Source: an uncultured Bacilli bacterium (GTDB lineage Bacteria; Bacillota_I; Bacilli_A; RF39; UBA660). From it: a stretch of DNA of 64,000 nucleotides. Within the stretch, counting starts at the first letter, position 1; the number at the start of each line of letters is the position of its first letter. Positions 10,306 to 43,795 of this stretch are shown here, one piece after another. The position numbers and the translations under genes are program-made. The stretch lies in assembly GCA_963931185.1 (NCBI GenBank), contig OZ006981.1, positions 766,859-830,858 on the forward strand, written 5' to 3'. Under the pieces are notes generated by a model. That model had not been told where the DNA came from. It saw only the letters and a program-made list of their open reading frames with translations, and searched no databases.

Positions 10306-10974
10306 ATGATAGGTAATAGTTGGGATATTTTATTAAGCGAAGAATATAAAAAGGATTATTTTAAAAATTTAAAAGATTTTGTAATATCAGAGTATAAAAA
10401 TAAAATAGTTTATCCTAAAATATCAGAAATATTTAAAGCTTTTATAGAAACAAGTTATGAAGATGTTAAAGTTGTTATTTTAGGACAAGATCCATATCAT
10501 GGTGAAAATGAAGCTGAAGGACTTTCTTTTTCTGTTAAAATAGGAATAACTAAGCCACCATCATTAATAAACATTTTTACAGAATTAAAAGATGATTTGG
10601 GTTGTAATATACCAAACCATGGTAGTTTAATTTCTTGGGCAAAACAAGGAGTATTATTGTTAAATTCAACATTAACAGTAGTAAAAGACACTCCAAAGTC
10701 ACATAGTAATAAAGGTTGGGAAATATTTACAGATGAAGTTATTAAAATTATAAACCAAAAAAACAAACCAGTAGTATTTATTTTATGGGGAAGTGATGCA
10801 AGAAGTAAAAAACAATTAATAAATAATCCTATACATCATATTATTGAGTCACCCCACCCATCTCCATTATCAGCATATCGCGGTTTCTTTGGAAGTAAAC
10901 CATTTTCTAGAACTAATAATTTTTTAATAAAAAATGGCATTAAACCAATTGATTGGGAAATAAAAGATATTTGA
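10306..10974 (+). CDS. ung: Uracil-DNA glycosylase
   Basis: GQDPYHG and HPSPLS motifs. Confidence 0.9.
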   Translation: MIGNSWDILLSEEYKKDYFKNLKDFVISEYKNKIVYPKISEIFKAFIETSYEDVKVVILGQDPYHGENEAEGLSFSVKIGITKPPSLINIFTELKDDLGCNIPNHGSLISWAKQGVLLLNSTLTVVKDTPKSHSNKGWEIFTDEVIKIINQKNKPVVFILWGSDARSKKQLINNPIHHIIESPHPSPLSAYRGFFGSKPFSRTNNFLIKNGIKPIDWEIKDI

Positions 10975-10975
10975 T

Positions 10976-11515
10976 TTACTGTTTTAGTATTTCAAATATC
11001 TCTTCTTTTTCATTAGAATAAAAATCTTTAAATTTATATTTGCAAATTTTTGCAATAATATTAGATGGAAAACATTTTATAAGATTATTATAAGTAACAA
11101 CATTATCATTGTAATATCTTTCAGAAGCAAGACATTCAGTATTTAAATTATAGAGTTCTTTTATTACTAGCATTTCATCATCATCAAAAATAATATCTTT
11201 ATCATAGTCAGTTATTTCTAAAATTTTTTTATTATATTTGTCTAACTCATTATTAAGTTCAAATGTATTTAATTCTTGTTTCTCAACTTTATCTAAACCT
11301 GAAAATTTGTAATTTTCTTTTTTATCTTCTATAAAATTCTTAATTCTTAACATTAATTCTAATCTTTTTTTTAATAAAATATTTATATTTTCTTCTGCTT
11401 CACTTATTTTTATAATAGCATTTTGAAATTTGTTATAATTAATTGCATATATAGAAAGTAATAATGCTGTAATAACAATAACTATAACAATAACAATAAG
11501 AATATATATAATCAT
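10976..11515 (-). CDS. LemA family protein
   Basis: N-terminal TM segment plus the LemA signature (ERYYNDNVVTYNNLIKCFPSNIIAKI). Confidence 0.7.
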   Translation of the reverse strand: MIIYILIVIVIVIVITALLLSIYAINYNKFQNAIIKISEAEENINILLKKRLELMLRIKNFIEDKKENYKFSGLDKVEKQELNTFELNNELDKYNKKILEITDYDKDIIFDDDEMLVIKELYNLNTECLASERYYNDNVVTYNNLIKCFPSNIIAKICKYKFKDFYSNEKEEIFEILKQ

Positions 11516-32939: not shown

Positions 32940-33006
32940 TTATATATATTTAAAAAAATGGAAAAATATGGTAAAATTATTCATTATAAAATAGTAGGTG
33001 AAGGTA

Positions 33007-33738
33007 ATGATTAATTTTATAATTTGTGATGATAATAAAGAATTTTCAGAAAAAATTAGAAAAATAATTAAAAACTACATGATGAACTTTGACATAGTTG
33101 ATAAATTTTATATGTATGAAGACTATAGTGATAAGTTTAAGTCAGAAATAAAAGAAATCGAAGGGTTTAAATTATATATTTTGGATATTGAAACAAAGTG
33201 CAATTCTGGAATAGATGCTGCTAGATATATAAGAGAAGAATTAGATGATTGGAATTCACTAATTATTTTTTTAACGGCACACAATGAATTAAAGTTTGAA
33301 GCATTAAGCAATAGACTTTATTTGTTGGATTTTATAAATAAATTTGATAATTATGAAAACAAGCTCAAAGAAGATTTAGAAAGAGTAAAGAAAAATTATG
33401 ATAACAGAGAAAAGTGCTTAACCTTTGAGTCAAATAGAGTTATAAAAAGAATAGATTTTAAAAATATTGTTATAATTGAAAAAGAAAAAGATAGCAAAAA
33501 GTGTATAGTAAAAGCAACCTACGGAGATTACGTAATTCATAAAACTTTAAACGAAGTATTTAAACTTTTAGATAAAAGATTTATAAAGACAAGTAGAAGT
33601 AGCATTGTTAATGTAGACCAAATAAGTGAATATGATTATTCAGAAAATAAAATATTGTTTAAAAATGGAATTGTAACCTTTGATATTTCGAGAAATAACA
33701 AAAAGAAGGTGTGCAACAGTGTCAAGTCTTATAGGTAA
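33007..33738 (+). CDS. agrA: AgrA-like response regulator (receiver + LytTR DNA-binding domain)
   Basis: Receiver domain (ICDDN..., YILDIET with phospho-acceptor Asp) plus a C-terminal LytTR-like region. It is adjacent to an AgrC-like kinase. The start is probably ATG 33007 after an AGGTGAAGG RBS. Confidence 0.75.
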   Translation: MINFIICDDNKEFSEKIRKIIKNYMMNFDIVDKFYMYEDYSDKFKSEIKEIEGFKLYILDIETKCNSGIDAARYIREELDDWNSLIIFLTAHNELKFEALSNRLYLLDFINKFDNYENKLKEDLERVKKNYDNREKCLTFESNRVIKRIDFKNIVIIEKEKDSKKCIVKATYGDYVIHKTLNEVFKLLDKRFIKTSRSSIVNVDQISEYDYSENKILFKNGIVTFDISRNNKKKVCNSVKSYR

Positions 33739-35020
33739 TGTAATTGGTTCAATAATTCAAAGTTTAACAGTAGTGCTTTGTGCTAAATCAATTTTATTAT
33801 ACAATAACAGAAAAAAAATGTTGACAATAAATGATTTGCTTTTCCTTATTTTTCTGTTTGTGCCTATTTCTTTAATTTATAGTAGTAATTATAATGTAAT
33901 AAGTCCTATTTTGTTTTTTACAGTAATTATATTTTGCTTGTTTTTTATATATAAAATTTCATTTTTAACATCGTTTTTATTTTCAGGAATCTTTATGATA
34001 ATTTTGGTTTTATCAGATTTAATAGTATCTATAATCTTTGTTGGATTCTTAAGTATTCAAACAATAAGAACAGAAAATTTTTACATAATATTAACAAATT
34101 TATTAGTTGGATTAATAGAGGTCGGGATTTTTTATATAAATGGATTTAAAAACAAAATAGTAGATATAATTTTAGAAACTGCAAAACATAAAAGTTTAGA
34201 ATTAATAACATTTATAATTTTACTAATTTTTGCTTTGAGCATTGGCATTTATATTTTGTTTGAAAATTATTATTTGAATAGAACTTTTATAATTGGAATA
34301 TTAGGAATTGTTATATTTTTAATTTTGTCCATTATATTTTTAAAAGAAAAATATGACAAAAATCTTTTAACAATTAAATATGATCAATTGTTTGAATATG
34401 TGCAGACTTTTGAGGAATGGATGGATAATGAAAATGTAAATATTCATGAATCAAAGAATCAATTAGCTGCATTACGTGCTATAATCAAAAATAATAAAGA
34501 AGCTATTCAATATATTGACAATATAATAAAAGATGAAATTGATTTAGAAAGTAAAAATATTCAAAAATTAAGAAACATTCCCAAAGGAGGATTAAAAGGA
34601 CTTTTATATTATAAAATAATATTTTCCGAGAAAAATAACATAGTTTTGTATATAGATATATCAAATAAAGTCGGAGATAAATTAGCCAAGTTAAATATTG
34701 AAGAAAATAAAATGCTTTGCAGATTGGTTGGGATTTTTTTTGATAACGCTATAGAGGCTGCTAAAGAGTCGGAAAAGAGAATGATTTCATGTGAAATTTA
34801 CAGGAATGATAAAGATATTATAATAACCATATCAAATACTTATGCAGGAAAATTAGAGTTAAACAAAGTAAGTGAAAAAGGATATTCAACCAAAGGGAAA
34901 AATAGAGGTAATGGTCTTTATTTAGCAAATAAAATAGCAAAAAAATCTGATATATTTTTTTTGGAAAACAGGATAATTAATGATTTTTATATTCAAAAAA
35001 TAATAATAAAAAAGATATAA
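33719..35020 (+). CDS. agrC: AgrC-like sensor histidine kinase (polytopic sensor + HATPase_c_5)
   Basis: Six to seven N-terminal TM helices and a C-terminal GHKL ATP-lid (NTYAGK...GKNRGNGLYLANKIA). The track ORF starts at TTG 33680. The likelier start is GTG 33719, preceded by a GAAGG RBS. Confidence 0.7.
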   Translation: MSSLIGNVIGSIIQSLTVVLCAKSILLYNNRKKMLTINDLLFLIFLFVPISLIYSSNYNVISPILFFTVIIFCLFFIYKISFLTSFLFSGIFMIILVLSDLIVSIIFVGFLSIQTIRTENFYIILTNLLVGLIEVGIFYINGFKNKIVDIILETAKHKSLELITFIILLIFALSIGIYILFENYYLNRTFIIGILGIVIFLILSIIFLKEKYDKNLLTIKYDQLFEYVQTFEEWMDNENVNIHESKNQLAALRAIIKNNKEAIQYIDNIIKDEIDLESKNIQKLRNIPKGGLKGLLYYKIIFSEKNNIVLYIDISNKVGDKLAKLNIEENKMLCRLVGIFFDNAIEAAKESEKRMISCEIYRNDKDIIITISNTYAGKLELNKVSEKGYSTKGKNRGNGLYLANKIAKKSDIFFLENRIINDFYIQKIIIKKI

Positions 35021-35467
35021 ATTTATATCTTTTTTATTTATAAGAAAATTATGTTTTTTTTGCACAAATTAAAAAATAATAGTTATTAATTTATTACACA
35101 AAGAATAAATTTTCATATTTTGAGAGACTTTAATTGGAAATGACCTATTACTTTAAATAAAAGTAAATAAATATTAGAATTGAAAGATAGATCATATCAA
35201 AAGTATGAAGAATATAAATAAAACTTAAATGAATTATAATTTATATTTCATATTTTTATTAATGTTTAATAGTAATAGAGTTAATATTAAATAAATATTG
35301 TAATTTTATCCTTTTTTAAAAGAGTGTCTAAGTTTTGCCAATAGTAAAAACATTATGTTTATACGTGCATCTAAAAATTTATTTCATGTTTTTAAACATT
35401 TGTTTAATATTAAAGTTAATTTTTCTATTGTTAACTTTGTCTTTAATTTTAATAAAATCTGTATTAT

Positions 35468-35552
35468 TTTTAATACATATAATAATAAATATATTATAAA
35501 TTAAAATAAACCAGCCTCAAAGAGGTTGGCAAATAAAATTGATTTTGTTATT
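35468..35552. repeat. Hairpin repeat element, copy 2 (ACCAGCCTCAAAGAGGTTGGC stem-loop). It acts as a bidirectional terminator between the convergent agrC and agrD.
   Basis: About 80% identical over roughly 70 bp to 478..549. A/T runs flank the hairpin on both sides. Confidence 0.55.
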
Positions 35553-35555
35553 TTT

Positions 35556-35678
35556 CTAGTCTATTAAATTTTTTGGCGCTCTTGGTTCATCTACTAAAAG
35601 TACAATGCATCCCATACTTGCAGCACCACTTGCTAATACAGCAATTGCAGTTAATAAGCTTGCTACTTTTTTCTTCAT
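35556..35678 (-). CDS. agrD: AgrD-like autoinducing-peptide precursor (40 aa). It is absent from the supplied ORF track.
   Basis: Manual minus-strand translation: MKKKVASLLTAIAVLASGAASMGCIVLLVDEPRAPKNLID. It has an amphipathic N-leader, a single Cys in a hydrophobic core, and a charged DEP..PK.L tail resembling the S. aureus DEVEVPKEL recognition motif. A GGAGG RBS sits 8 nt upstream, and the gene is immediately 3' of agrB. Confidence 0.7.
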   Translation of the reverse strand: MKKKVASLLTAIAVLASGAASMGCIVLLVDEPRAPKNLID

Positions 35679-35726
35679 ACTATACCTCCTATAATAATAA
35701 TATATATTAAATATCAAAATTGATAT

Positions 35727-36338
35727 TTAATCAGAATTAATGTAATTTTTATAATTATTATATGGCTGCCTAGTTGCCATATATATAAAAGGATTTACCA
35801 TGATTGATTGAATAACAATTGATAATAATAAAATTGATGAAATTTTATAATCTACATAAGGAATAATAATCGAATAGATAATGGTAACAAGAATAATTAA
35901 ACATTTTCTAATCATTTTTTTCTTTTTATTAATCATAGGTCTTTTTTTTGTATCGCTAGGTGCAAATAATAAAAAATTAAATATACATAAACTTATTAAT
36001 AACCATTTATAATTAAATATTAATAGTTGTTTAGAAATTAAAAACGGTAAAATGAAAAATAAAGTTATGGAAATAACTAAACATTCGGTACTATTTCTAG
36101 CATGATACCCAAATCCAAAAAAACGTAAAAAATTATAAAATAACAATAATAATAAAATTTCATATAATATATTAAAAATAAAACCTAATAGCAAAATGAC
36201 AAATAATTTAGTAACTGTTAAATAAATGCCTTCAATACCATACTTGATTTTATCTAATTCATCTTTAGAAAAAGCAGGGTTGTTTTTTTTAACCACATTC
36301 ATATAGTTATTTAAAAATAAATCTTTCATATACTTCAC
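35727..36338 (-). CDS. agrB: AgrB-like membrane peptidase that processes AgrD
   Basis: About 200 aa with 5-6 TM segments. The conserved His...Cys catalytic pair is present (YHARNSTEC, H to C spacing +7 as in S. aureus HAPSSFWC). Confidence 0.7.
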   Translation of the reverse strand: MKYMKDLFLNNYMNVVKKNNPAFSKDELDKIKYGIEGIYLTVTKLFVILLLGFIFNILYEILLLLLFYNFLRFFGFGYHARNSTECLVISITLFFILPFLISKQLLIFNYKWLLISLCIFNFLLFAPSDTKKRPMINKKKKMIRKCLIILVTIIYSIIIPYVDYKISSILLLSIVIQSIMVNPFIYMATRQPYNNYKNYINSD

Positions 36339-37501: not shown

Positions 37502-39994
37502 ATGAATATTTTTAAAAGATTATTCGATCATGAATACAAAGAATTAAAGAGATTTTCAATTTTGGCAGATAAAGTAGAAGCATTAGACGAGGAATATCAA
37601 AAACTATCTGATTATGAATTACAAGCTAAAACTGATGAATTTAAAAATAGATTAAAAGATGGAGAAACTCTAGAAGATATTTTACCTGAAGCATTTGCTA
37701 CTGTTAGAGAAGCCGCATATAGAGTAATTGGTTTAAAACCATTTTATGTACAAATTTTAGGAGCAATAGCATTACATTTCGGGAATATAGCAGAAATGAA
37801 AACTGGTGAAGGTAAAACTTTAGTTGCTACAATGCCAGCATATTTAAATGCACTAACTGGTAATGGAGTACATATAATAACTGTTAATGAATATTTGGCA
37901 GAACGTGATAGCAATTGGATGGGAAGTATTCATCGCTTTTTAGGGTTAACTGTAGGCACAAATTTAAGAAGTCTTACACCAAAAGAAAAAAAAGAACAAT
38001 ATGCGTGTGATATTTTATATTCAACAAATAATGAGCTAGGTTTTGATTATTTAAGAGATAACATGGTAGTAAAAAAAGAAAACAGAGTACAACGAGGTCT
38101 TAATTTTGTAATAATAGATGAAGCAGACTCTGTTTTGATAGATGAAGCTAGAACTCCCCTTATAATATCTGGTGGTGAATTAAAAAGTGCTTCATTATAT
38201 ACGGATGCTGATTTATTTGTTAAATCATTGAAAAAAGAAAAAGATTATTTATATGATGAGAAAACTAAAGGCGTTACATTAACTGAAGAAGGAGTAAAAA
38301 AAGCTGAAAAAAACTTTAAAGTAGATAATCTTTATGATATTGAACAAACGGCTACTGTTCATTATATAAATCAAGCTCTAAAAGCAAACTATGGAATGAG
38401 ACGTGATGTTGATTATGTAGTACAAGACGGAGAAATAATAATTGTCGATCAGTTTACTGGGCGCCTTATGAAAGGACGTGCATTTAGTGATGGACTACAT
38501 CAAGCAATAGAAGCTAAAGAGGGAGTAAAAATACAGCAAGAAACAAAGACTTTAGCAACAATTACATTTCAAAATTTATTTAGAATGTACAAAAAAATAT
38601 CTGGTATGACAGGAACTGCGAAGACAGAAGAAGAAGAATTTAGAAATATATATAATATGTATGTAATATGTATTCCTACTAATAAAGAAATCATAAGAGT
38701 AGACGCATCTGATTTAATATACTCAACTCAGGCTGGTAAATATAAAGCATTGATTGAAGAAATAGAAGAAAGACATAAAAAAGGACAACCAGTTTTAGTA
38801 GGAACAATAGCAATAGAGACAAACGAATTAATAAGTTCTCTACTTAAAAAAAGAAAAATACCACATGAGGTATTAAATGCTAAAAACCATGCTCGTGAAG
38901 CTGAAATTATTGCAAAAGCTGGTGAAAAAGGAGCGGTTACTATAGCTACTAATATGGCAGGACGTGGAACTGATATCAAGTTAAGCGAAGAAACAAAAGT
39001 TTTAGGAGGACTTTGCGTTTTAGGAACTGAAAGACATGAATCACGACGTATTGATAATCAATTGCGTGGAAGATCTGGTAGACAAGGAGATCCTGGATTT
39101 ACTCAATTTTATGTTTCTATGGAAGATGAATTAATGGTACGCTTTGGAAGCGATAGAATAAAAAGAATGATGCAAACACTTGGATTACGTGAAGATCAAC
39201 CAATACAAAGTAAAACCTTTTCTAAAGCAATATCAACAGCACAAACACGTGTCGAAGGTAATAACTTTGATATAAGAAAACAATTATTACAATATGATGA
39301 TGTAATGAATAATCAAAGAGAAATAATGTATCAAAAAAGAAATGAGATTTTAGACAATGATTCAATTCATGATTCAATATTAGAATCAATAAAAAATAAT
39401 ATTACAGATTTAGTTAAGTCTCACATTTATCCAGAAGGATACTTGACTAAGGAAGATATAAAAGATATTGTTAAAAATGTTAATGAAAATTTATTACAAA
39501 ATGATATTAATGCTAACGATTTATTAGATAAAAAGGAAGAAGAAATAATAGAATGTATATATGAAAAGATAGTTAATGAATATGAAAAGAAAATTGCAAT
39601 AGTACCAAAAGAAATAAGTGATGAATTTGAAAAAGTTATAATGTTAAACGTAATTGATAAGTATTGGACTGAACATATAAACACAATGTCACATTTACGC
39701 GAAGGAATTCACTTGAGAAGTTATGGACAAACAGATCCTTTGAGAGCTTATACAGTAGAAGGTTTTGAATTGTTTGATACAATGATGCAAAAAATTGATA
39801 AAGAAGTTACAATGTTTTTAATACGTTCAGAAATAAAACAAAATATTGAAAGAAAAGAAACTAATAAAAATAAAATTGCAAATGATGGAAAAGAGCATGC
39901 AAAACAAGAACCAAAAAAATCACAAAAAATTGGAAGAAATGATCCTTGTCCATGTGGCTCAGGGAAGAAATATAAACAATGTTGTGGTAAATAG
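37502..39994 (+). CDS. secA: Preprotein translocase ATPase SecA
   Basis: 830 aa with a Walker A motif (MKTGEGKT), DEAD-like motor, and a C-terminal zinc finger ([15 protein letters not shown]). Confidence 0.95.
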
Positions 39995-40133
39995 CGGTGA
40001 GTATTGGGTTTAAGAGGATTTTGTCCACGTAAAAAACTCCAAAAAAAGGCTATTTGTCCACATTTTGTTTCCAAAATTGAGAAAAATGAAACCAAAATAG
40101 TGTAAAAATCTTTTGAAAACAAAAAAGTTAGCA
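39953..40133 (+). repeat. Direct repeat, copy A: the last 43 bp of secA plus a downstream 70-bp terminator-containing segment
   Basis: Identical 43-mer TGTGGCTCAGGGAAGAAATATAAACAATGTTGTGGTAAATAGC at 39953-39995 and 41455-41497. A 70-bp segment at 40064-40133 is about 93% identical to 41555-41623. Confidence 0.8.
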
Positions 40134-40319
40134 TTCATTTGCTAGCTTTTTGTTAAATATAACTACGTTAACATAAAGTAAGACATTGTGTAACGATGAA
40201 AGTAAATACAGTAAAAATGTAAGAATGAGTATATTGCAAACTATGATAATATTAACCATTATACAAAAAAAGCTATTGATGAAAATGGACATGATATTAT
40301 TAGGCCTATTTTATGGGAT

Positions 40320-40826
40320 ATGATTTTAGAAAAGGCAGTATCTGTTTTACATTCTAAAAATAATATAATTCAATTTTCTCGTGGTAAAGATGAATTATAT
40401 GAACATGAGTTTGGTAAGAATGTTTATAAAAGAAGTATTGATTCTATACTTGATTATTTACCACTTAAAGACAAAACTGTTATAGTTAATTTGATATCAC
40501 CATTAACTGTTAGAAAAGAGAGAAATGCTAAAAGATATGAAAATGGCGGACATTTTGTTTCTGAAGATACAATGGATAATGTTTATGACAAAGATTATTT
40601 TGCTTACATTGAAACAGCTGGCAGTATAGGGTATATAGAAGTAAAAAAGCAAAAGTATCCTGTGATTACAATTTGTAATGACAAAACCCTTAGCCCAGTT
40701 GAACTTAATTCATTTTTGTATTATAATTTAGAAAGAGTAGTAAATTACTATAATGAATTTAATAGGGAGGTAGAATATGAATTTAAAACAAATTCAAAAA
40801 GAAGTTTGGCAAAACAAATTAAATAA
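40320..40826 (+). pseudogene. Zeta-toxin/AAA_33-like kinase fragment lacking the N-terminal Walker A region
   Basis: C-terminal region with RYENGGHFV, similar to the zeta/PezT GGHxV motif. No upstream frame supplies a P-loop. Confidence 0.3.
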
Positions 40827-41076
40827 AGGATTTAATACTACAAATGTAGAAAAAGAGTTTTGCTTTTTATATGGGGAAGTAGCAGAAGCCTTTGATGCTT
40901 ACAGAAAGAAAAAAGATGATCTAAATGAAGAATTAGCTGACATTGCAATTTATTTGCTTGGTTTATCTGAAATGTTAGGCTTTGATTTAGAAGATGAAAT
41001 CATGAAAAAAGTTTCTAAAAACGAGAAACGTGTATATAAAAATGTTGATGGTACAAATATTAGAGTAAGTGATTGA
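40777..41076 (+). CDS. MazG-like nucleotide pyrophosphohydrolase domain protein
   Basis: EVAE...EELADIAIYLLGL...E(D)E four-helix EExxE pattern; a GGGAGG RBS precedes it. Confidence 0.6.
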   Translation: MNLKQIQKEVWQNKLNKGFNTTNVEKEFCFLYGEVAEAFDAYRKKKDDLNEELADIAIYLLGLSEMLGFDLEDEIMKKVSKNEKRVYKNVDGTNIRVSD

Positions 41077-41454
41077 GAAGAATATTAGTTCTTCTTTTTT
41101 TAATAACTTTTTAATAAAAAAGAATATTGCTAATATACATGGTATACCAAATATATTTTTATGTAATACAAATATAAATGTTGAAAACGTAGTAAAATAT
41201 TTATGTGATGTTTTTTCAACTAACAATTATAAGAAAATTAAATATGAAGTGATTTTAAATAAAAATGTGCTATAATAGATTACGTAAACGGATGCACACA
41301 ATGTTTTCATTTTGTTTCCAAATTACAAGAAATAAATAGTAATCATAGTACTATAAATACCACAAATATTTTTATTACCTGTGCCACAAAGCCTTGAAAT
41401 ACCAGTAATTACGTAAATAACATAAATACTATAAATACTTGGATTTCTTGAACT

Positions 41455-41623
41455 TGTGGCTCAGGGAAGAAATATAAACAATGTTGTGGTAAATAGCATA
41501 TAAAATAAATAATTATGAGAAATTAAAAAATCAAAAAATGTGTAAATTAGTCAATTTTGTTTCAAAAATAGGAAGAATGAAACCAAAATAGTGTAAAAAT
41601 CTTTTGAAAACAAAAAATTAGCA
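41455..41623 (+). repeat. Direct repeat, copy B (partial secA 3' end of 14 codons plus stop, then the terminator region)
   Basis: See copy A. An upstream in-frame stop shows this copy is not part of a gene. Confidence 0.8.
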
Positions 41624-41857
41624 AATTAATGCTAATTTTTTTAATACAAGAACTTTTCCGTAAAGTAGTAAATAGCTCAAAAAACAGATTTATTAAAATA
41701 AATAAAATAATAAATAGGATAAGTTAAATATTATAATTTATATGATATATTAAATATAATCAATTTATAATACTGAAGGTACGCAAATGATTGACATAGG
41801 AAAAATATTAAGTTAAAATTAAGTTAATAAAATATAGTTGGTAAAGGTGATTTTTAT

Positions 41858-43795
41858 ATGTACGATAACGAGGATGAAATTAAAAGAAAAAGAAGAATAT
41901 TGTTTATTACAATAGCAGTAATAATTACATTAATTATAATATTATTAATATTCCTATTTATTAGAAGTAAAAATAATGAAAATGTTACTGAACCTAAAGA
42001 ACTAACTTGTGAGTTAAAAGCAACTGGTACATTAAATGAAAATAATGTTTATACTTCAGAAGTTATTATTGAATTTAAAAATATGCAAATGGAAGAGCTT
42101 GGAATATATAATTATGGTATAAGTGATAGTAATACGCCGATATATAATAAAAAAACGAAATATGTTATAAATACAAATGGAAATCACGTAGTATATGGTT
42201 ATGTTGAGGATGCTAACGGCAATACTGGAAATTGTAAAATTGAAGTAGAAACTAGCCTTACACAGCCAACATGTGAATTGGAAGTTATAAGTGGAACTGT
42301 TGGGGAAAATGATTGGTACACATCAGATGTTGTTGTTGGGTTTAAAAGCAAAAATTCAAATAATGAAAATGTGACAATAGAAAAGTATTATATTGAAAAG
42401 AAAATATCCGATTTGAATAATGAAGATGTTATAAAAGGAGAAGTACCAGATGAAAATATAGATAAATATACAATTAAAGATAATCAAACTACTCAATTGA
42501 ATGGATATGTAATTGATTCAAATGGTACGAAAGGAATGTGTAGTATAACTATAAAGAAAGATGCAGATACTCCAACATGTAGTTTGAAAGTAATTAGCGG
42601 AACACAAAATAGTTCAGGAATTTATACTAGTGAAGTAACAGTAGGATTTAATACAAAAGACGATAAAACTTCAGAAGTAACTGAGTTTGGTATTGGAACA
42701 GCAGAAAATTATACTGAAGAGACAGCAGTAGTAACAGCTTCAGGAACAACTACAATCTATGGATATGTAAAAGATAGTGCTGGAAATAAAGGAAATTGTA
42801 GTATACAAATAAAACGACCTACTGCGCCACCAGATCCACCAGAAAAACCGCAATCATATCCGTCTTGCACGCTAGAAGTTGTAGGATCGCTAAGTGGTAA
42901 TACCTATTTAGGTAATACAACTGTTAGATTCAAAAGTAAAGGGTCAACAAATGGAGCATCGATTACATCATATGGTATTGGTACTTCAGCACAATTAAAC
43001 GGACAAGATAGTTACACAATAACAACAGCAGGGAATTTTAATATTTATGGAATGGTAAAAGATTCTAACGGAAAAACAGCAACATGTGGACCTGTAAATC
43101 TTAACGTACAAATTCCAACGTTATTGTCATCAAATGTTAAAGTAGGAGATTATGTAGCTTATGACGCAGGAACATGGGGAAGCAGTGCAGCAATTCCAAC
43201 AACAAATAAAAATTTTGGAGGTTATGAGTCAGGTAAAAGCAAAAATTCAAGCGTTAAATGTAGAAATGAAGATACCTCTACTGCTAGTGGATGGAGAGTG
43301 TTGTCCGTAAATGGAAGTACAGTAACAATTATTCATGCAGGAATATCAGAATGTTATTATCATGATGTTACTAGTGCCGATGAAGCGATTAGTACGCTTA
43401 ATAATAGGGCAAGAACAACATATATGAATAGTTTTGCATCTGATGCTAGAATGATGACTCTAAATGACTATAATAGTAATACAACTTTTCAAAATATAGG
43501 TTCACATTACTATATGGCAACAAGAAAAGATAACACAACCTTGTATTATGTTTCGTATACAGGAAGGTTAAGTGGAGGAAGTGCAAGAGCAAATGGCGTA
43601 AGACCTATAGTAGTATTGAAAAGCAATGTAACGACTACAGGTAAGAATTCAAATGGAGCTTGGGTTTTAATACTTGACGGAAATATAAGCAAAGATTTTG
43701 ATACAAATATTACTTATCCAAAATCATATATTGAACTATTTAATAACACAATCGAAAAAGTTGAAGAAATAATTAATAGAATAGTAAAAAACTAA
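41858..43795 (+). CDS. Large surface protein: signal-anchor, four about 90-aa Cys-bracketed Ig-like repeats, and a C-terminal domain with a VRPIVVL motif
   Basis: Repeats of TCEL.., (V)YTSEV.V.F, and GYV.D.NGN.GNC.I; a PPDPPEKP linker. The C-terminal segment ...ANGVRPIVVLKSNV is shared with the 58010..59071 protein (VNYVRPVITVNKDS). Confidence 0.6.
   Translation: MYDNEDEIKRKRRILFITIAVIITLIIILLIFLFIRSKNNENVTEPKELTCELKATGTLNENNVYTSEVIIEFKNMQMEELGIYNYGISDSNTPIYNKKTKYVINTNGNHVVYGYVEDANGNTGNCKIEVETSLTQPTCELEVISGTVGENDWYTSDVVVGFKSKNSNNENVTIEKYYIEKKISDLNNEDVIKGEVPDENIDKYTIKDNQTTQLNGYVIDSNGTKGMCSITIKKDADTPTCSLKVISGTQNSSGIYTSEVTVGFNTKDDKTSEVTEFGIGTAENYTEETAVVTASGTTTIYGYVKDSAGNKGNCSIQIKRPTAPPDPPEKPQSYPSCTLEVVGSLSGNTYLGNTTVRFKSKGSTNGASITSYGIGTSAQLNGQDSYTITTAGNFNIYGMVKDSNGKTATCGPVNLNVQIPTLLSSNVKVGDYVAYDAGTWGSSAAIPTTNKNFGGYESGKSKNSSVKCRNEDTSTASGWRVLSVNGSTVTIIHAGISECYYHDVTSADEAISTLNNRARTTYMNSFASDARMMTLNDYNSNTTFQNIGSHYYMATRKDNTTLYYVSYTGRLSGGSARANGVRPIVVLKSNVTTTGKNSNGAWVLILDGNISKDFDTNITYPKSYIELFNNTIEKVEEIINRIVKN

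Follow-up and report, generated by a model that had tools for sequence, protein, structure and literature searches.

Why does the 3′ end of secA occur twice, 1.5 kb apart, in the genome of an uncultured gut Bacilli bacterium? The original prediction, made from this 64-kb stretch of DNA (here called the window), was that the two copies are the attL and attR sites left by site-specific integration into the 3′ end of a gene. We compared the locus with conspecific and related contigs (L numbers are our labels) and conclude that it very probably is a decayed island without an integrase, flanked by attL and attR and lodged in the 3′ end of secA.

The duplicated secA tail and the genes between its copies

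The attachment site lies in the last codons of secA, which specify 15 residues of the SEC-C zinc finger (Table 1). A 43-nt sequence at this position, TGTGGCTCAGGGAAGAAATATAAACAATGTTGTGGTAAATAGC, is present in exactly two copies in the window, both on the same strand; none of 100 shuffled sequences contained a match, even when three mismatches were allowed. The predicted exact direct repeat therefore stands, with the correction that it holds 13 secA codons rather than 14, followed by the TAG stop and one further base. The second copy is preceded by a TGA one codon upstream and has no start codon, and is thus an orphan, as the description of it as a displaced gene tail had implied. Reading this TGA as tryptophan was considered and dropped because the long open reading frames (ORFs) of the window read cleanly in table 11.

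Table 1. Features of the secA locus, in window coordinates
Feature	Position	Strand	Remarks
secA, 830 aa	37502..39994	+	ORF; Pfam SecA domains and SEC-C on the identical protein
Probable crossover region at attL	39950..39957	+	CCATGTGG, Pro-Cys-Gly codons; suggested by tail comparisons
Repeat copy 1, secA tail now joined to secA (attL side)	39953..39995	+	
Left arm (P′), mosaic	39996..40160	+	TTTGTCCAC at 40020 and 40053; TTTTGTTTCC at 40063; 42-nt block; hairpin 40118-40154
Deletion scar, island left end joined to codon ~337 of the kinase gene	40224..40227	.	~5.1 kb missing (L008 2340-7447)
3′ remnant of PfkB + P-loop kinase fusion gene	40224..40826	+	ORF 40320-40826, 168 aa; without PfkB domain and P-loop
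MazG-like NTP pyrophosphohydrolase gene (predicted), 99 aa	40777..41076	+	Sole intact cargo gene
68-aa ORF, probably not a gene	41069..41275	+	No family match; uncalled in L001, L005 and L015
Right arm (P)	41255..41454	+	TATAAT..GTAAACGGATG, then 7-mer pair, ending ..CTTGAACT
Repeat copy 2, displaced orphan secA tail (attR side)	41455..41497	+	Continuous with the empty-site sequence of L002
Native secA downstream region	41498..41650	+	42-nt block 41576-41617 and hairpin 41612-41641; inside the L002 match
645-aa membrane-anchored protein, native right-hand neighbor, outside the element	41858..43795	+	Directly after secA in L002 and L004

A second repeated segment of 66 nt (40061-40126 versus 41552-41617, 88% identity) corresponds to the terminator-containing repeat of about 70 bp that had been predicted. 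It encloses an exact 42-nt block (40085-40126 and 41576-41617) found nowhere else in the window, while the spacer between the 43-nt and 66-nt segments has diverged between the copies (65 versus 54 nt). Direct folding supports a hairpin with a U-run in each copy (copy 1, −15.4 kcal/mol, z = −4.25; copy 2, −10.6 kcal/mol, z = −4.4). A consensus terminator scan reported 0 sites and so neither hairpin, in our reading because the stems consist mostly of A-T pairs. The repeated 3′ untranslated block has no Rfam match at an E value of ≤1. A third partial copy, absent from the original prediction, is the 15-mer CATTTTGTTTCCAAA, which is exact at 40061 and again at 41308.

Between the repeats, the 168-aa ORF is identical at 166 of 168 positions to residues 369-536 of a 536-aa L008 protein that carries a PfkB domain at residues 177-252 and a weak AAA_18 match at residues 271-343; by tblastn, homology of the window to this kinase fusion begins at residue 337. 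The fragment is thus truncated, as had been proposed, and is the end of this fusion rather than of a zeta-toxin-like gene. The MazG-like assignment holds (Pfam, 3.7e-09, above cutoff; PHROG pyrophosphatase, 1.4e-15). An identical MazG-like protein recurs in 231 blocks of the collection, and the gene is retained in several independent deletion derivatives. The 68-aa ORF matches no family in Pfam, PHROGs, or PADLOC, and no cassette gene matches a PADLOC defense system. The cassette was said to lack an integrase; no homologue of the secA-site integrase family is present anywhere in the 64-kb window.

Empty and alternatively occupied sites in one species

We examined 22 conspecific contigs that encode an identical SecA protein and whose flanks are approximately 99% identical. 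The site holds the cassette in 10 and is precisely empty in 10; in the remaining 2 it is occupied by another island, whose integrase has decayed, so that both the empty sites and the larger islands anticipated by the original prediction exist. In the empty contigs (L002, L004, and eight similar ones), secA continues into the window's copy-2 sequence and then the gene for the 645-aa protein, which in L002 and L004 starts 362 nt past the secA stop; this is the window minus 1,502 bp. Flank identity between empty contigs and the window is 99.1 to 99.3% over 10.6 and 8 kb, and the right-flank match of L002 (99.1 to 99.4%) starts at 41447. As with a tyrosine-integrase element at a gene 3′ end, close relatives have an unoccupied attB and the target ORF is preserved: the same 830-aa SecA is encoded in the empty, cassette, and L003 states. 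The empty site may not be a pristine attB, because its downstream region is homologous to element left arms. No circular (attP) junction was found.

The alternative occupant, represented by L003, is 5.5 kb long and carries thrS and a split integrase. The tail on its secA is element-borne and synonymous with the native one; the two differ at 7 positions, the first of them immediately following CATGTGG. The native tail sits at the opposite end of the island (10587-10628).

The cassette is a remnant of something larger. Window positions 40132-40227 correspond to L012 2243-2339, and positions 40224-41493 correspond to L008 7448-8718 at 98.7% identity; the cassette demonstrably arose from a 6.6-kb island by loss of 5.1 kb, which supports its description as a decayed integrative element without a recombinase. 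The parent island carries a nucleotide-metabolism cluster, has no integrase, relaxase, or transfer gene, and is 97 to 99% identical across species. The cassette itself is 98.7% identical to L008 and 97.6% identical to L012, hosts whose secA genes are 69 to 71% identical to that of the window. In L010, an integrase-bearing element directly adjoins a MazG remnant. In L006, sequence switches from right arm to left arm at the shared 15-mer, which points to a homology-driven deletion.

Element arms, integrases, and the secA site across the clade

In all elements, the attR side is invariant through (A/T)TGTGG and host specific beyond it; the element end ..CTTGAAC(A/T)TGTGG is shared by five hosts, each with a different tail after it. 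Judged from these tails, crossing over probably takes place in the short (C)ATGTGG with which the 43-mer begins, which leaves the rest of the 43-nt identity in need of another explanation.

The right arm can be aligned with the arms that follow the integrases of L010, L100, L003, L102, and L103. It contains the 7-mers TGTTTTC (41302-41308) and TGTTTCC (41313-41319), 11 nt apart and 153 nt before the crossover; of 14 elements, 13 have such a pair 152 to 156 nt from TGTGG. The 7-mer sequence varies with element lineage (TGTCCAC, TGTGTGC, and TGTTTCC in right arms; TGTGCAC and TGTTCGC in left arms), and this layout and co-variation mark the 7-mers as putative integrase-binding sites. We found no integrase beside a TGTTTCC-type arm; a metagenome scan returned one contig, a PfkB-MazG copy without an integrase. 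The left arm, absent from the empty site L002 along with its TGTCCAC/TGTTTCC motifs, is a mosaic of three sequence types: positions 39996-40065 match arms located behind the integrases of L099 and L102, and the terminator matches L008 and L011.

Integrases with a matching att arm, which the original prediction suggested looking for elsewhere, are found in relatives. All nine Xis-Int pairs (L010 and L098-L105) are followed, 281 to 310 nt later, by an orphan secA tail. The modules consist of an HTH_17 Xis and a tyrosine integrase with arm-binding (Arm-DNA-bind_4), SAM-like, and catalytic domains. The elements that end in them are large and either ICE-like or defense carrying, with relaxase/ArdC or BREX/OLD cargo.

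We surveyed 80 species-level loci of the clade, scanning for orphan tails with protein motifs. Every one of the 24 orphan tails is found downstream of secA and on the same strand as the gene, with none on the minus strand; the single upstream tail match comes from an additional full-length secA in L042. Homologues of the integrase occur downstream of secA in 12 loci and upstream in none. A tail or integrase is present in 20 of the 42 loci that have at least 3 kb of downstream sequence, and 30 of the 80 contigs are interrupted no more than 700 nt from the secA stop. Some tails lie close to secA (L067, +730; L093, +889; L040, +1021; L089, +1144; L023, +1235), and L025 has three (+3261, +4720, and +5796). 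That integration alters SecA C termini was considered and rejected; nine loci missed by the motif search have a CHGK zinc-finger variant.

A single essential gene, secA, is thus at the center of horizontal gene flow in a widespread uncultured lineage of human and animal gut Bacilli, with islands or scars in about half of the related species examined. Cargo includes BREX, OLD nucleases, restriction systems, toxin-antitoxin genes, extra aminoacyl-tRNA synthetases, and the nucleotide-metabolism cluster. The site explains assembly gaps in genome bins and serves as a landmark for mobile cargo.

Competing explanations and known systems

The reading we prefer is that a family of tyrosine-integrase elements recombines with the Pro-Cys-Gly codons of secA (..CCATGTGG..) in this uncultured gut lineage. 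Each element would itself supply the 13 codons still needed, together with a stop and a terminator. Because the element carries this tail, integration would restore a complete secA and displace the former tail to the opposite end of the element, leaving it there as an orphan; repeated use of the site would produce arrays of orphan tails. The 1.5-kb unit in the window has kept both arms and the intact MazG-like gene but has lost approximately 5.1 kb internally. Having no recombinase, it may be mobile only with an integrase supplied in trans or in a composite with an incoming element (cis-mobilization). Several observations go against this reading. If a foreign element had integrated in one step, secA should now bear a donor-type tail, as in L003, but the two tails of the window are identical over 43 nt; together with the mosaic left arm, this means that extra recombination or gene conversion must be assumed. 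In addition, no family integrase is found in the window, in the 6.6-kb parent, or by way of the TGTTTCC-type arm. The failure to find an attP junction and the resemblance of the empty site's downstream region to element left arms also count against it.

The identical tails could be accommodated if the att-like structure is real but this strain did not gain it through an integrase, and the occupied allele was spread or lost within the species by homologous recombination through flanking secA and downstream DNA, the 43-nt and 42-nt patches being gene-conversion tracts between direct repeats. Consistent with this are the 99% flank identity of occupied and empty strains, the two patches of the left arm that are identical to the native copy (a native block that in L004 differs at 6 of 42 positions), and the arm switch of L006. 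Such exchange leaves unexplained the island in species with a 71%-identical secA and the abutment of (A/T)TGTGG in every host; it covers only the last step and is compatible with integration at secA, and as an account of the locus we regard it as unlikely, if still worth weighing. Less probable again is an integron-like platform on which small units without an integrase (a tail, an arm, one or a few genes, and an arm) are the normal mobile form, shuffled in trans by secA-resident integrases, and are not decay products. The spacing of only 0.7 to 2 kb that separates tails from secA or from the tail before in many species, the integrase-less 6.6-kb island at 97 to 99% identity across species, and an intact MazG in several different reduced units would all suit it. 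The unit in the window, however, is demonstrably a deletion product with a truncated gene, its repeats are full lambda-style arms with a gene tail rather than attC hairpins, and no resident integrase sits beside secA in the window.

That the secA 3′ region was ancestrally duplicated in tandem around native genes, or that repeats produced an assembly artifact, has almost nothing to commend it beyond the direct orientation and the similarity of the two terminator regions. The duplication is excluded because the enclosed DNA is 98 to 99% identical in distant hosts whose secA is only ~71% identical, and the artifact because the same arrangement recurs on a 1.0-Mb contig and nine further contigs. 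Conspecific empty sites and the homology of the right arm to integrase-adjacent arms count against both.

Structures of this kind are well understood. In Streptococcus thermophilus, cis-mobilizable elements (CIMEs) and tandem accretion of ICESt1/ICESt3-related elements occur at the 3′ end of fda, and in Bacillota ICEs and IMEs more generally, tyrosine integrases target the 3′ ends of protein genes (rpsI, rplL, guaA, lysS, and others). Related secA elements resemble the latter in having Xis and a tyrosine integrase at one end, a replacement gene 3′ end, and defense, relaxase, and toxin-antitoxin cargo. They differ in their target: secA has no occurrences in five ICE/IME surveys (PMC5704250, PMC5357655, PMC4701971, PMC7563491, and PMC5812530), and we could not find it described as a target in the literature searched. 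A cognate integrase and excisionase stand beside the att end in all nine relatives and not in the window, so that the window unit is a nonautonomous derivative and not itself a tyrosine-integrase element.

The unit instead fits a CIME-like remnant at a secA 3′ attachment site, by the definition and three-step accretion model outlined in PMC5704250 (citing Pavlovic 2004 and Bellanger 2011). It is flanked by the attL and attR of an integrative family, as indicated by the repeats, right-arm homology, 7-mer spacing, and left-arm motifs. Integration, excision, and transfer genes are lost, and only the kinase fragment, the MazG-like gene, and the unsupported 68-aa ORF lie between the repeats. As to origin from an ICE or IME, the 5.1-kb deletion and a P arm related to the arms of relaxase-bearing elements are in favor, but the 6.6-kb parent has no integrase, relaxase, or transfer gene. 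Compared with the S. thermophilus CIMEs, the target is secA, the host is an uncultured Bacilli lineage, the parent is not recognizably an ICE, and cis-mobilization is here a proposal, with the L010 element that adjoins a MazG remnant and the near identity of the island across species as circumstantial support only.

Other systems share single features. Like a lambda-type attP, in which arm-type integrase sites flank a core, secA elements have paired 7-mer direct repeats at a fixed 152 to 156 nt from the crossover and Arm-DNA-bind_4 integrases, although arm binding is here suggested by layout and co-variation only. As in integrons, short gene units are arrayed at one chromosomal site and a repeated recombination sequence bounds each of them; unlike in integrons, no intI-type integrase or attC-type sites were detected, the units have ~350-nt arms with a gene tail, and at least the window unit is a decay product. 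The direct repeats here are of a gene tail and long arms, no integrase of the family tested lies near secA in the window, and the locus does not qualify as an integron. Dehalococcoides ssrA islands, as described in PMC3146451, likewise occupy a specific site at the end of an essential gene present in a single copy, although that target is an RNA gene in a different phylum. A prophage or phage satellite (PICI/SaPI-like) was rejected: PHROGs matches were limited to pyrophosphatase families for MazG, none of the 42-nt tail, the 42-nt block, and the arm motif was detected in IMG/VR by exact matching, and a BLAST search of the cassette against 50,697 phage records gave no match. Against plasmids, the cassette matched only a distant MazG-like gene on an Enterococcus megaplasmid.

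In one integrase subfamily, an A_AAA_AAA frameshift site (A8) is conserved. A more far-reaching proposal, which we regard as possible and hold only tentatively, is that the secA 3′ end is an active cassette-accretion platform whose nonautonomous units are moved across species in trans, and that this subfamily services it, being made only via conserved −1 frameshifting or transcriptional slippage at A_AAA_AAA/A8 to give a short arm- and core-binding protein and a rare full-length integrase. The literature searched held nothing relevant on recoded tyrosine integrases, and we could not find there a description of IS1/IS3-like, transposase-style control for this enzyme class. The short conserved attB in zinc-finger codons and the lineage-specific arm repeats offer a compact natural series of integrase/att pairs, and the frameshift site in the one subfamily is a candidate for recoding control of integration.

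Repeated secA tail and three states of the site

The 43-mer TGTGGCTCAGGGAAGAAATATAAACAATGTTGTGGTAAATAGC flanks the cassette as an exact pair, as the original prediction held, although it contains 13 secA codons plus the stop rather than 14. A whole-window search allowing up to three mismatches found no third match, and there were none in 100 shuffles. A second repeated segment, separated from the 43-mer by a diverged spacer (65 nt versus 54 nt), includes a 42-nt exact block. Folding places a hairpin and then a U-run at the end of both copies (copy 1, -15.4 kcal/mol, z -4.25; copy 2, -10.6 kcal/mol, z -4.4), in agreement with the predicted duplication of a terminator-containing segment; a consensus terminator scan detected neither hairpin, which we attribute to stems made mostly of A-T pairs. 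With a TGA one codon 5' and no start codon, copy 2 is indeed a displaced (orphan) gene tail. In addition, CATTTTGTTTCCAAA at 40061 recurs at 41308 as a partial third copy.

We compared 22 contigs encoding the identical 830-aa SecA, collected by identity look-up. Ten share the arrangement of the window (L001 and nine similar contigs), ten have secA followed 362 nt on by a 645-aa gene (L002 and six others; L004 and two others), and two carry a different island at the site (L003 and one other). Both empty sites and other islands, which the original prediction had proposed looking for, are therefore present in relatives. In L002, the flanks match those of the window at 99.3% identity (upstream, 10.6 kb) and 99.1% (downstream, 8 kb), and precisely the 1502 bp are absent. 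The L002 DNA 3' of the secA stop corresponds to copy 2, not copy 1; therefore, copy 2 and the DNA following it are native, and 39996-41454 is inserted. The 645-aa native neighbor combines a membrane anchor at its N terminus with repeats inside the protein, and matches nothing in Pfam, PHROG, PADLOC, or NCBIfam. Just 5' of csp-hpf-secA lies an agr-like quorum-sensing set, with domain calls taken from the identical locus L001.

In L003, the SecA protein is unaltered; the secA tail after ..CCATGTGG is TTCGGGTAAAAAATATAAACAATGCTGTGGAAAGTAG, synonymous with the native tail at 7 differences, and the native tail lies 5.5 kb downstream, directly 3' of element sequence ..CCCACTACATGTGG. From these two tails we infer recombination within (C)ATGTGG, by which an element would bring a new secA 3' end and push the old one away. 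This island encodes a split integrase, whose two parts are 41-56% identical to the intact 426-aa enzyme of locus L010, and a thrS paralogue (TIGR00418, 485 bits versus a cutoff of 383.65). The window readings (attL, CCATGTGG; attR, AACTTGTGG), the L004 attB (CCTTGTGG), and the island in other hosts (AACATGTGG) fit a crossover just 5' of (A/T)TGTGG, a detail that is no more than suggestive, as one SNP would also explain these readings.

Coordinates of features in the window and in comparison loci
Feature	Location	Coordinates	Strand
43-mer, exact repeat	window	39953-39995 and 41455-41497	
Second repeated segment, 66 nt, 88%	window	40061-40126 and 41552-41617	
42-nt exact block in second segment	window	40085-40126 and 41576-41617	
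645-aa native neighbor	window	41858-43795	
agr-like set: LytTR response regulator, HATPase_c_5 kinase, 40-aa ORF, AgrB	window	32998-36338	minus
Parent island: NT5C-like; MiaB-like radical-SAM; Amdase/Asp-Glu-racemase-like; HhH-GPD glycosylase; dNK/dTMP-kinase-like; 536-aa PfkB plus P-loop kinase; MazG	L008	2493-8300	
Displaced native secA tail	L003	10587-10628	
Interrupted integrase	L003	7425-8680	
Interrupted integrase	L095	12561-13831	
Interrupted integrase	L099	18415-19688	
Interrupted integrase	L101	7388-8643	
thrS paralogue	L003	5732-7261	
Aminoacyl-tRNA synthetase gene	L006	6524-7516	
Aminoacyl-tRNA synthetase gene	L100	12267-13541	
Aminoacyl-tRNA synthetase gene	L103	14952-16190	
BREX (PglZ, BrxL, MmeI-type methylase)	L098 and L100	1-7378	
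OLD-family nuclease	L098	1-7378 (range shared with BREX)	
OLD-family nuclease	L100	1-7378 (range shared with BREX)	
OLD-family nuclease	L101	120-2051	
Type I restriction genes and SieB	L010	343-2970	
Type I restriction genes	L099	13932-16788	
Left-arm repeats of TGTGCAC	L021	about 11290-11490	
Left-arm repeats of TGTTCGC	L038	about 11293-11490	

A reduced island of foreign origin

Window positions 40224-41493 share 98.7% identity with L008 7448-8718 and 97.6% with that interval in L012, contigs whose secA is only 69-71% identical to that of the window; the cassette is foreign and reduced. A 6.6-kb island closed by the MazG-like gene directly follows secA in L008, L011, and L012, and its gene set is compact and nucleotide-related. 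Between L008 and L012 the island is 97% identical, and between L008 and L011 identity is 89% over contigs that include secA. The window joins the left end of the island (40132-40227, equivalent to L012 2243-2339) to kinase codon ~337, a deletion of about 5.1 kb. The 168-aa ORF left behind corresponds to kinase residues 369-536 (166/168 identical) and therefore has neither the PfkB domain nor the P-loop; the original prediction correctly called it truncated, and its zeta-toxin-like label is corrected here to a remnant of a PfkB plus P-loop kinase. The predicted MazG-like gene is intact (Pfam MazG-like, 3.7e-09; PHROG pyrophosphatase, 1.4e-15), and an identical protein occurs in 231 blocks of the collection. 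Retention of MazG in other, independently reduced units (L010, L006, and L014) suggests that it is selected cargo. Five hosts share the conserved right end of the island, ..GGATTTCTTGAAC(A/T)TGTGG, each with a different tail after it.

Several features do not fit one clean integration. Judging from L003, secA should carry a donor-type tail, whereas the secA tail of the window equals the orphan tail over 43 nt. The left arm reads as a mosaic: 39996-40065 matches TGTCCAC-type arms (named after their paired 7-mer) downstream of the integrases of L099 and L102, 40085-40126 is the same as the native block (which differs at 6 positions in L004), and the terminator is of the L008/L011 type. In L006, right-arm sequence gives way to left-arm sequence at a shared 15-mer. 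The unit must therefore have been reshaped by recombination or gene conversion between adjacent arms.

Integrases, arms, and use of the secA site

The 64-kb window contains no integrase homologue, in line with the predicted absence from the cassette. An HTH_17 excisionase-like gene precedes the L010 integrase (Arm-DNA-bind_4, SAM_3, and Phage_integrase domains). At E <= 1e-20 this integrase has 1608 homologues, and two of these on long contigs mark the right end of large elements. In all nine loci with such an excisionase-integrase pair (L010 and L098-L105), an orphan secA tail lies +281 to +310 nt after the integrase stop, so that integrases with a matching att arm, anticipated elsewhere, do exist. 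Up to ..ACATGTGG or ..AACTTGTGG, the element sequence does not vary among these loci; the tails beyond it do. Cargo includes relaxase PF03432, ArdC, HU, and sortase in L102-L105, and BREX genes, an OLD-type nuclease, a sigma factor, and PemK toxin in L098, L100, and L101; L010 carries SieB besides type I restriction genes.

Window positions 41255-41454 align with integrase-adjacent arms, with TATAAT..GT(A/G)AACGGATG followed by two 7-mers 11 nt apart. The first 7-mer precedes TGTGG by 152-156 nt in 13 of 14 elements; the window value is 153 nt. By lineage, the right-arm 7-mer is TGTCCAC, TGTGTGC, or TGTTTCC; with the two left-arm 7-mers (TGTGCAC and TGTTCGC), these make a TGTnnnC series that shifts with element lineage. 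The pattern is that expected of arm-type integrase sites, which the enzymes would presumably bind. We found no integrase beside a TGTTTCC-type arm and no attP junction.

Islands at the site repeatedly carry extra aminoacyl-tRNA synthetase genes, of class I tRNA-synt_1b (Trp/Tyr type) and class II tRNA-synt_2b besides thrS. Mobile copies of such genes are often resistance determinants against natural synthetase inhibitors.

A scan with the SecA C-terminal 430 aa returned 80 species-level genomes (L018-L097; best, 89% identical), labeled "Bacilli bacterium," Clostridium sp. CAG:710, Candidatus Scybalousia (now Ca. Alloscybalousia, Bacilli incertae sedis, at NCBI), and similar. Each of the 24 orphan SEC-C tails is located downstream of secA and reads in the same direction; the opposite strand has none. 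The sole upstream tail match is the second long SEC-C-tailed ORF of L042 (the two, at about 10919 and 19593, are ~8.7 kb apart on the same strand), which may represent another full-length secA, a copy carried by an island, or a misassembly. Twelve loci have an integrase homologue downstream, and no locus has one upstream (381 kb scanned downstream and 598 kb upstream). Downstream sequence reaches at least 3 kb in 42 loci, of which 18 have an orphan tail, 9 an integrase, and 20 at least one of the two; the site is heavily used in this lineage, as the suggestion of a hotspot implied. It is also a systematic assembly breakpoint: the contig ends <700 nt past the secA stop in 30/80 loci, and that of L046 stops at ..GRNDP, just before the crossover codons. 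Some contigs (L046 and L086) end inside the tail codons. At sites that appear unoccupied, prfB is close behind secA (191 nt in L061); elsewhere, it is 3.6-8.4 kb away.

Together, the empty site, the L003 donor tail, the 5.1-kb deletion, and the integrase-linked arms support a decayed, non-autonomous island at a secA 3' attachment site, the first of the predicted interpretations. Neither the satellite alternative nor an integron or prophage identity was borne out. The orphan-tail arrays match the accretion model given together with the definition of cis-mobilizable elements (CIMEs) (PMC5704250); the unit itself is CIME-like, with descent from an ICE or IME and mobilization in cis both possible. 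In the ICE/IME surveys searched, secA is absent, and further literature searches returned nothing on it as an integration target. The value of the finding lies mainly in the breadth of the secA hotspot and in the putative integrase frameshift of related loci.

Integrases interrupted at an A-run

In one subfamily of the secA-targeting tyrosine integrases, the enzyme is always broken at the same residue, as seen in eight loci from different species (L003, L025, L036, L066, L084, L095, L099, and L101). Identity among these copies is only 58-97%. The junction consensus is GAA TTA AAA AAA ACG ATG TAG, with minor substitutions between loci: an A_AAA_AAA / A8 run has its A_AAA_AAA in the zero frame, a stop follows two codons on, and the -1 frame is open through the catalytic domain, where ..SFELKKNDVGHIYT.. 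is colinear with ..FDKKREDVKHLYT.. of the intact L010 enzyme. Programmed frameshifting or slippage during transcription is a candidate mechanism. We found no precedent for a recoded tyrosine integrase in the literature searched; many recoding candidates in genes of mobile elements appear in large-scale surveys of disrupted ORFs, so an earlier description is possible.

A database search with the 170-aa N-terminal product returned 620 homologues. Of these, all the top 120 clusters (identity 78-100%; some contain hundreds of members) measure 164-199 aa, except for one of 280 aa, and include no full-length in-frame version. The pattern suggests conserved recoding (-1 frameshifting or slippage during transcription) or, alternatively, an integrase made of two polypeptides. 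The C terminus is ..KKT[IM] in about 90 of the top 120 clusters, whereas ~15-20 have the ending expected from an A7 variant.
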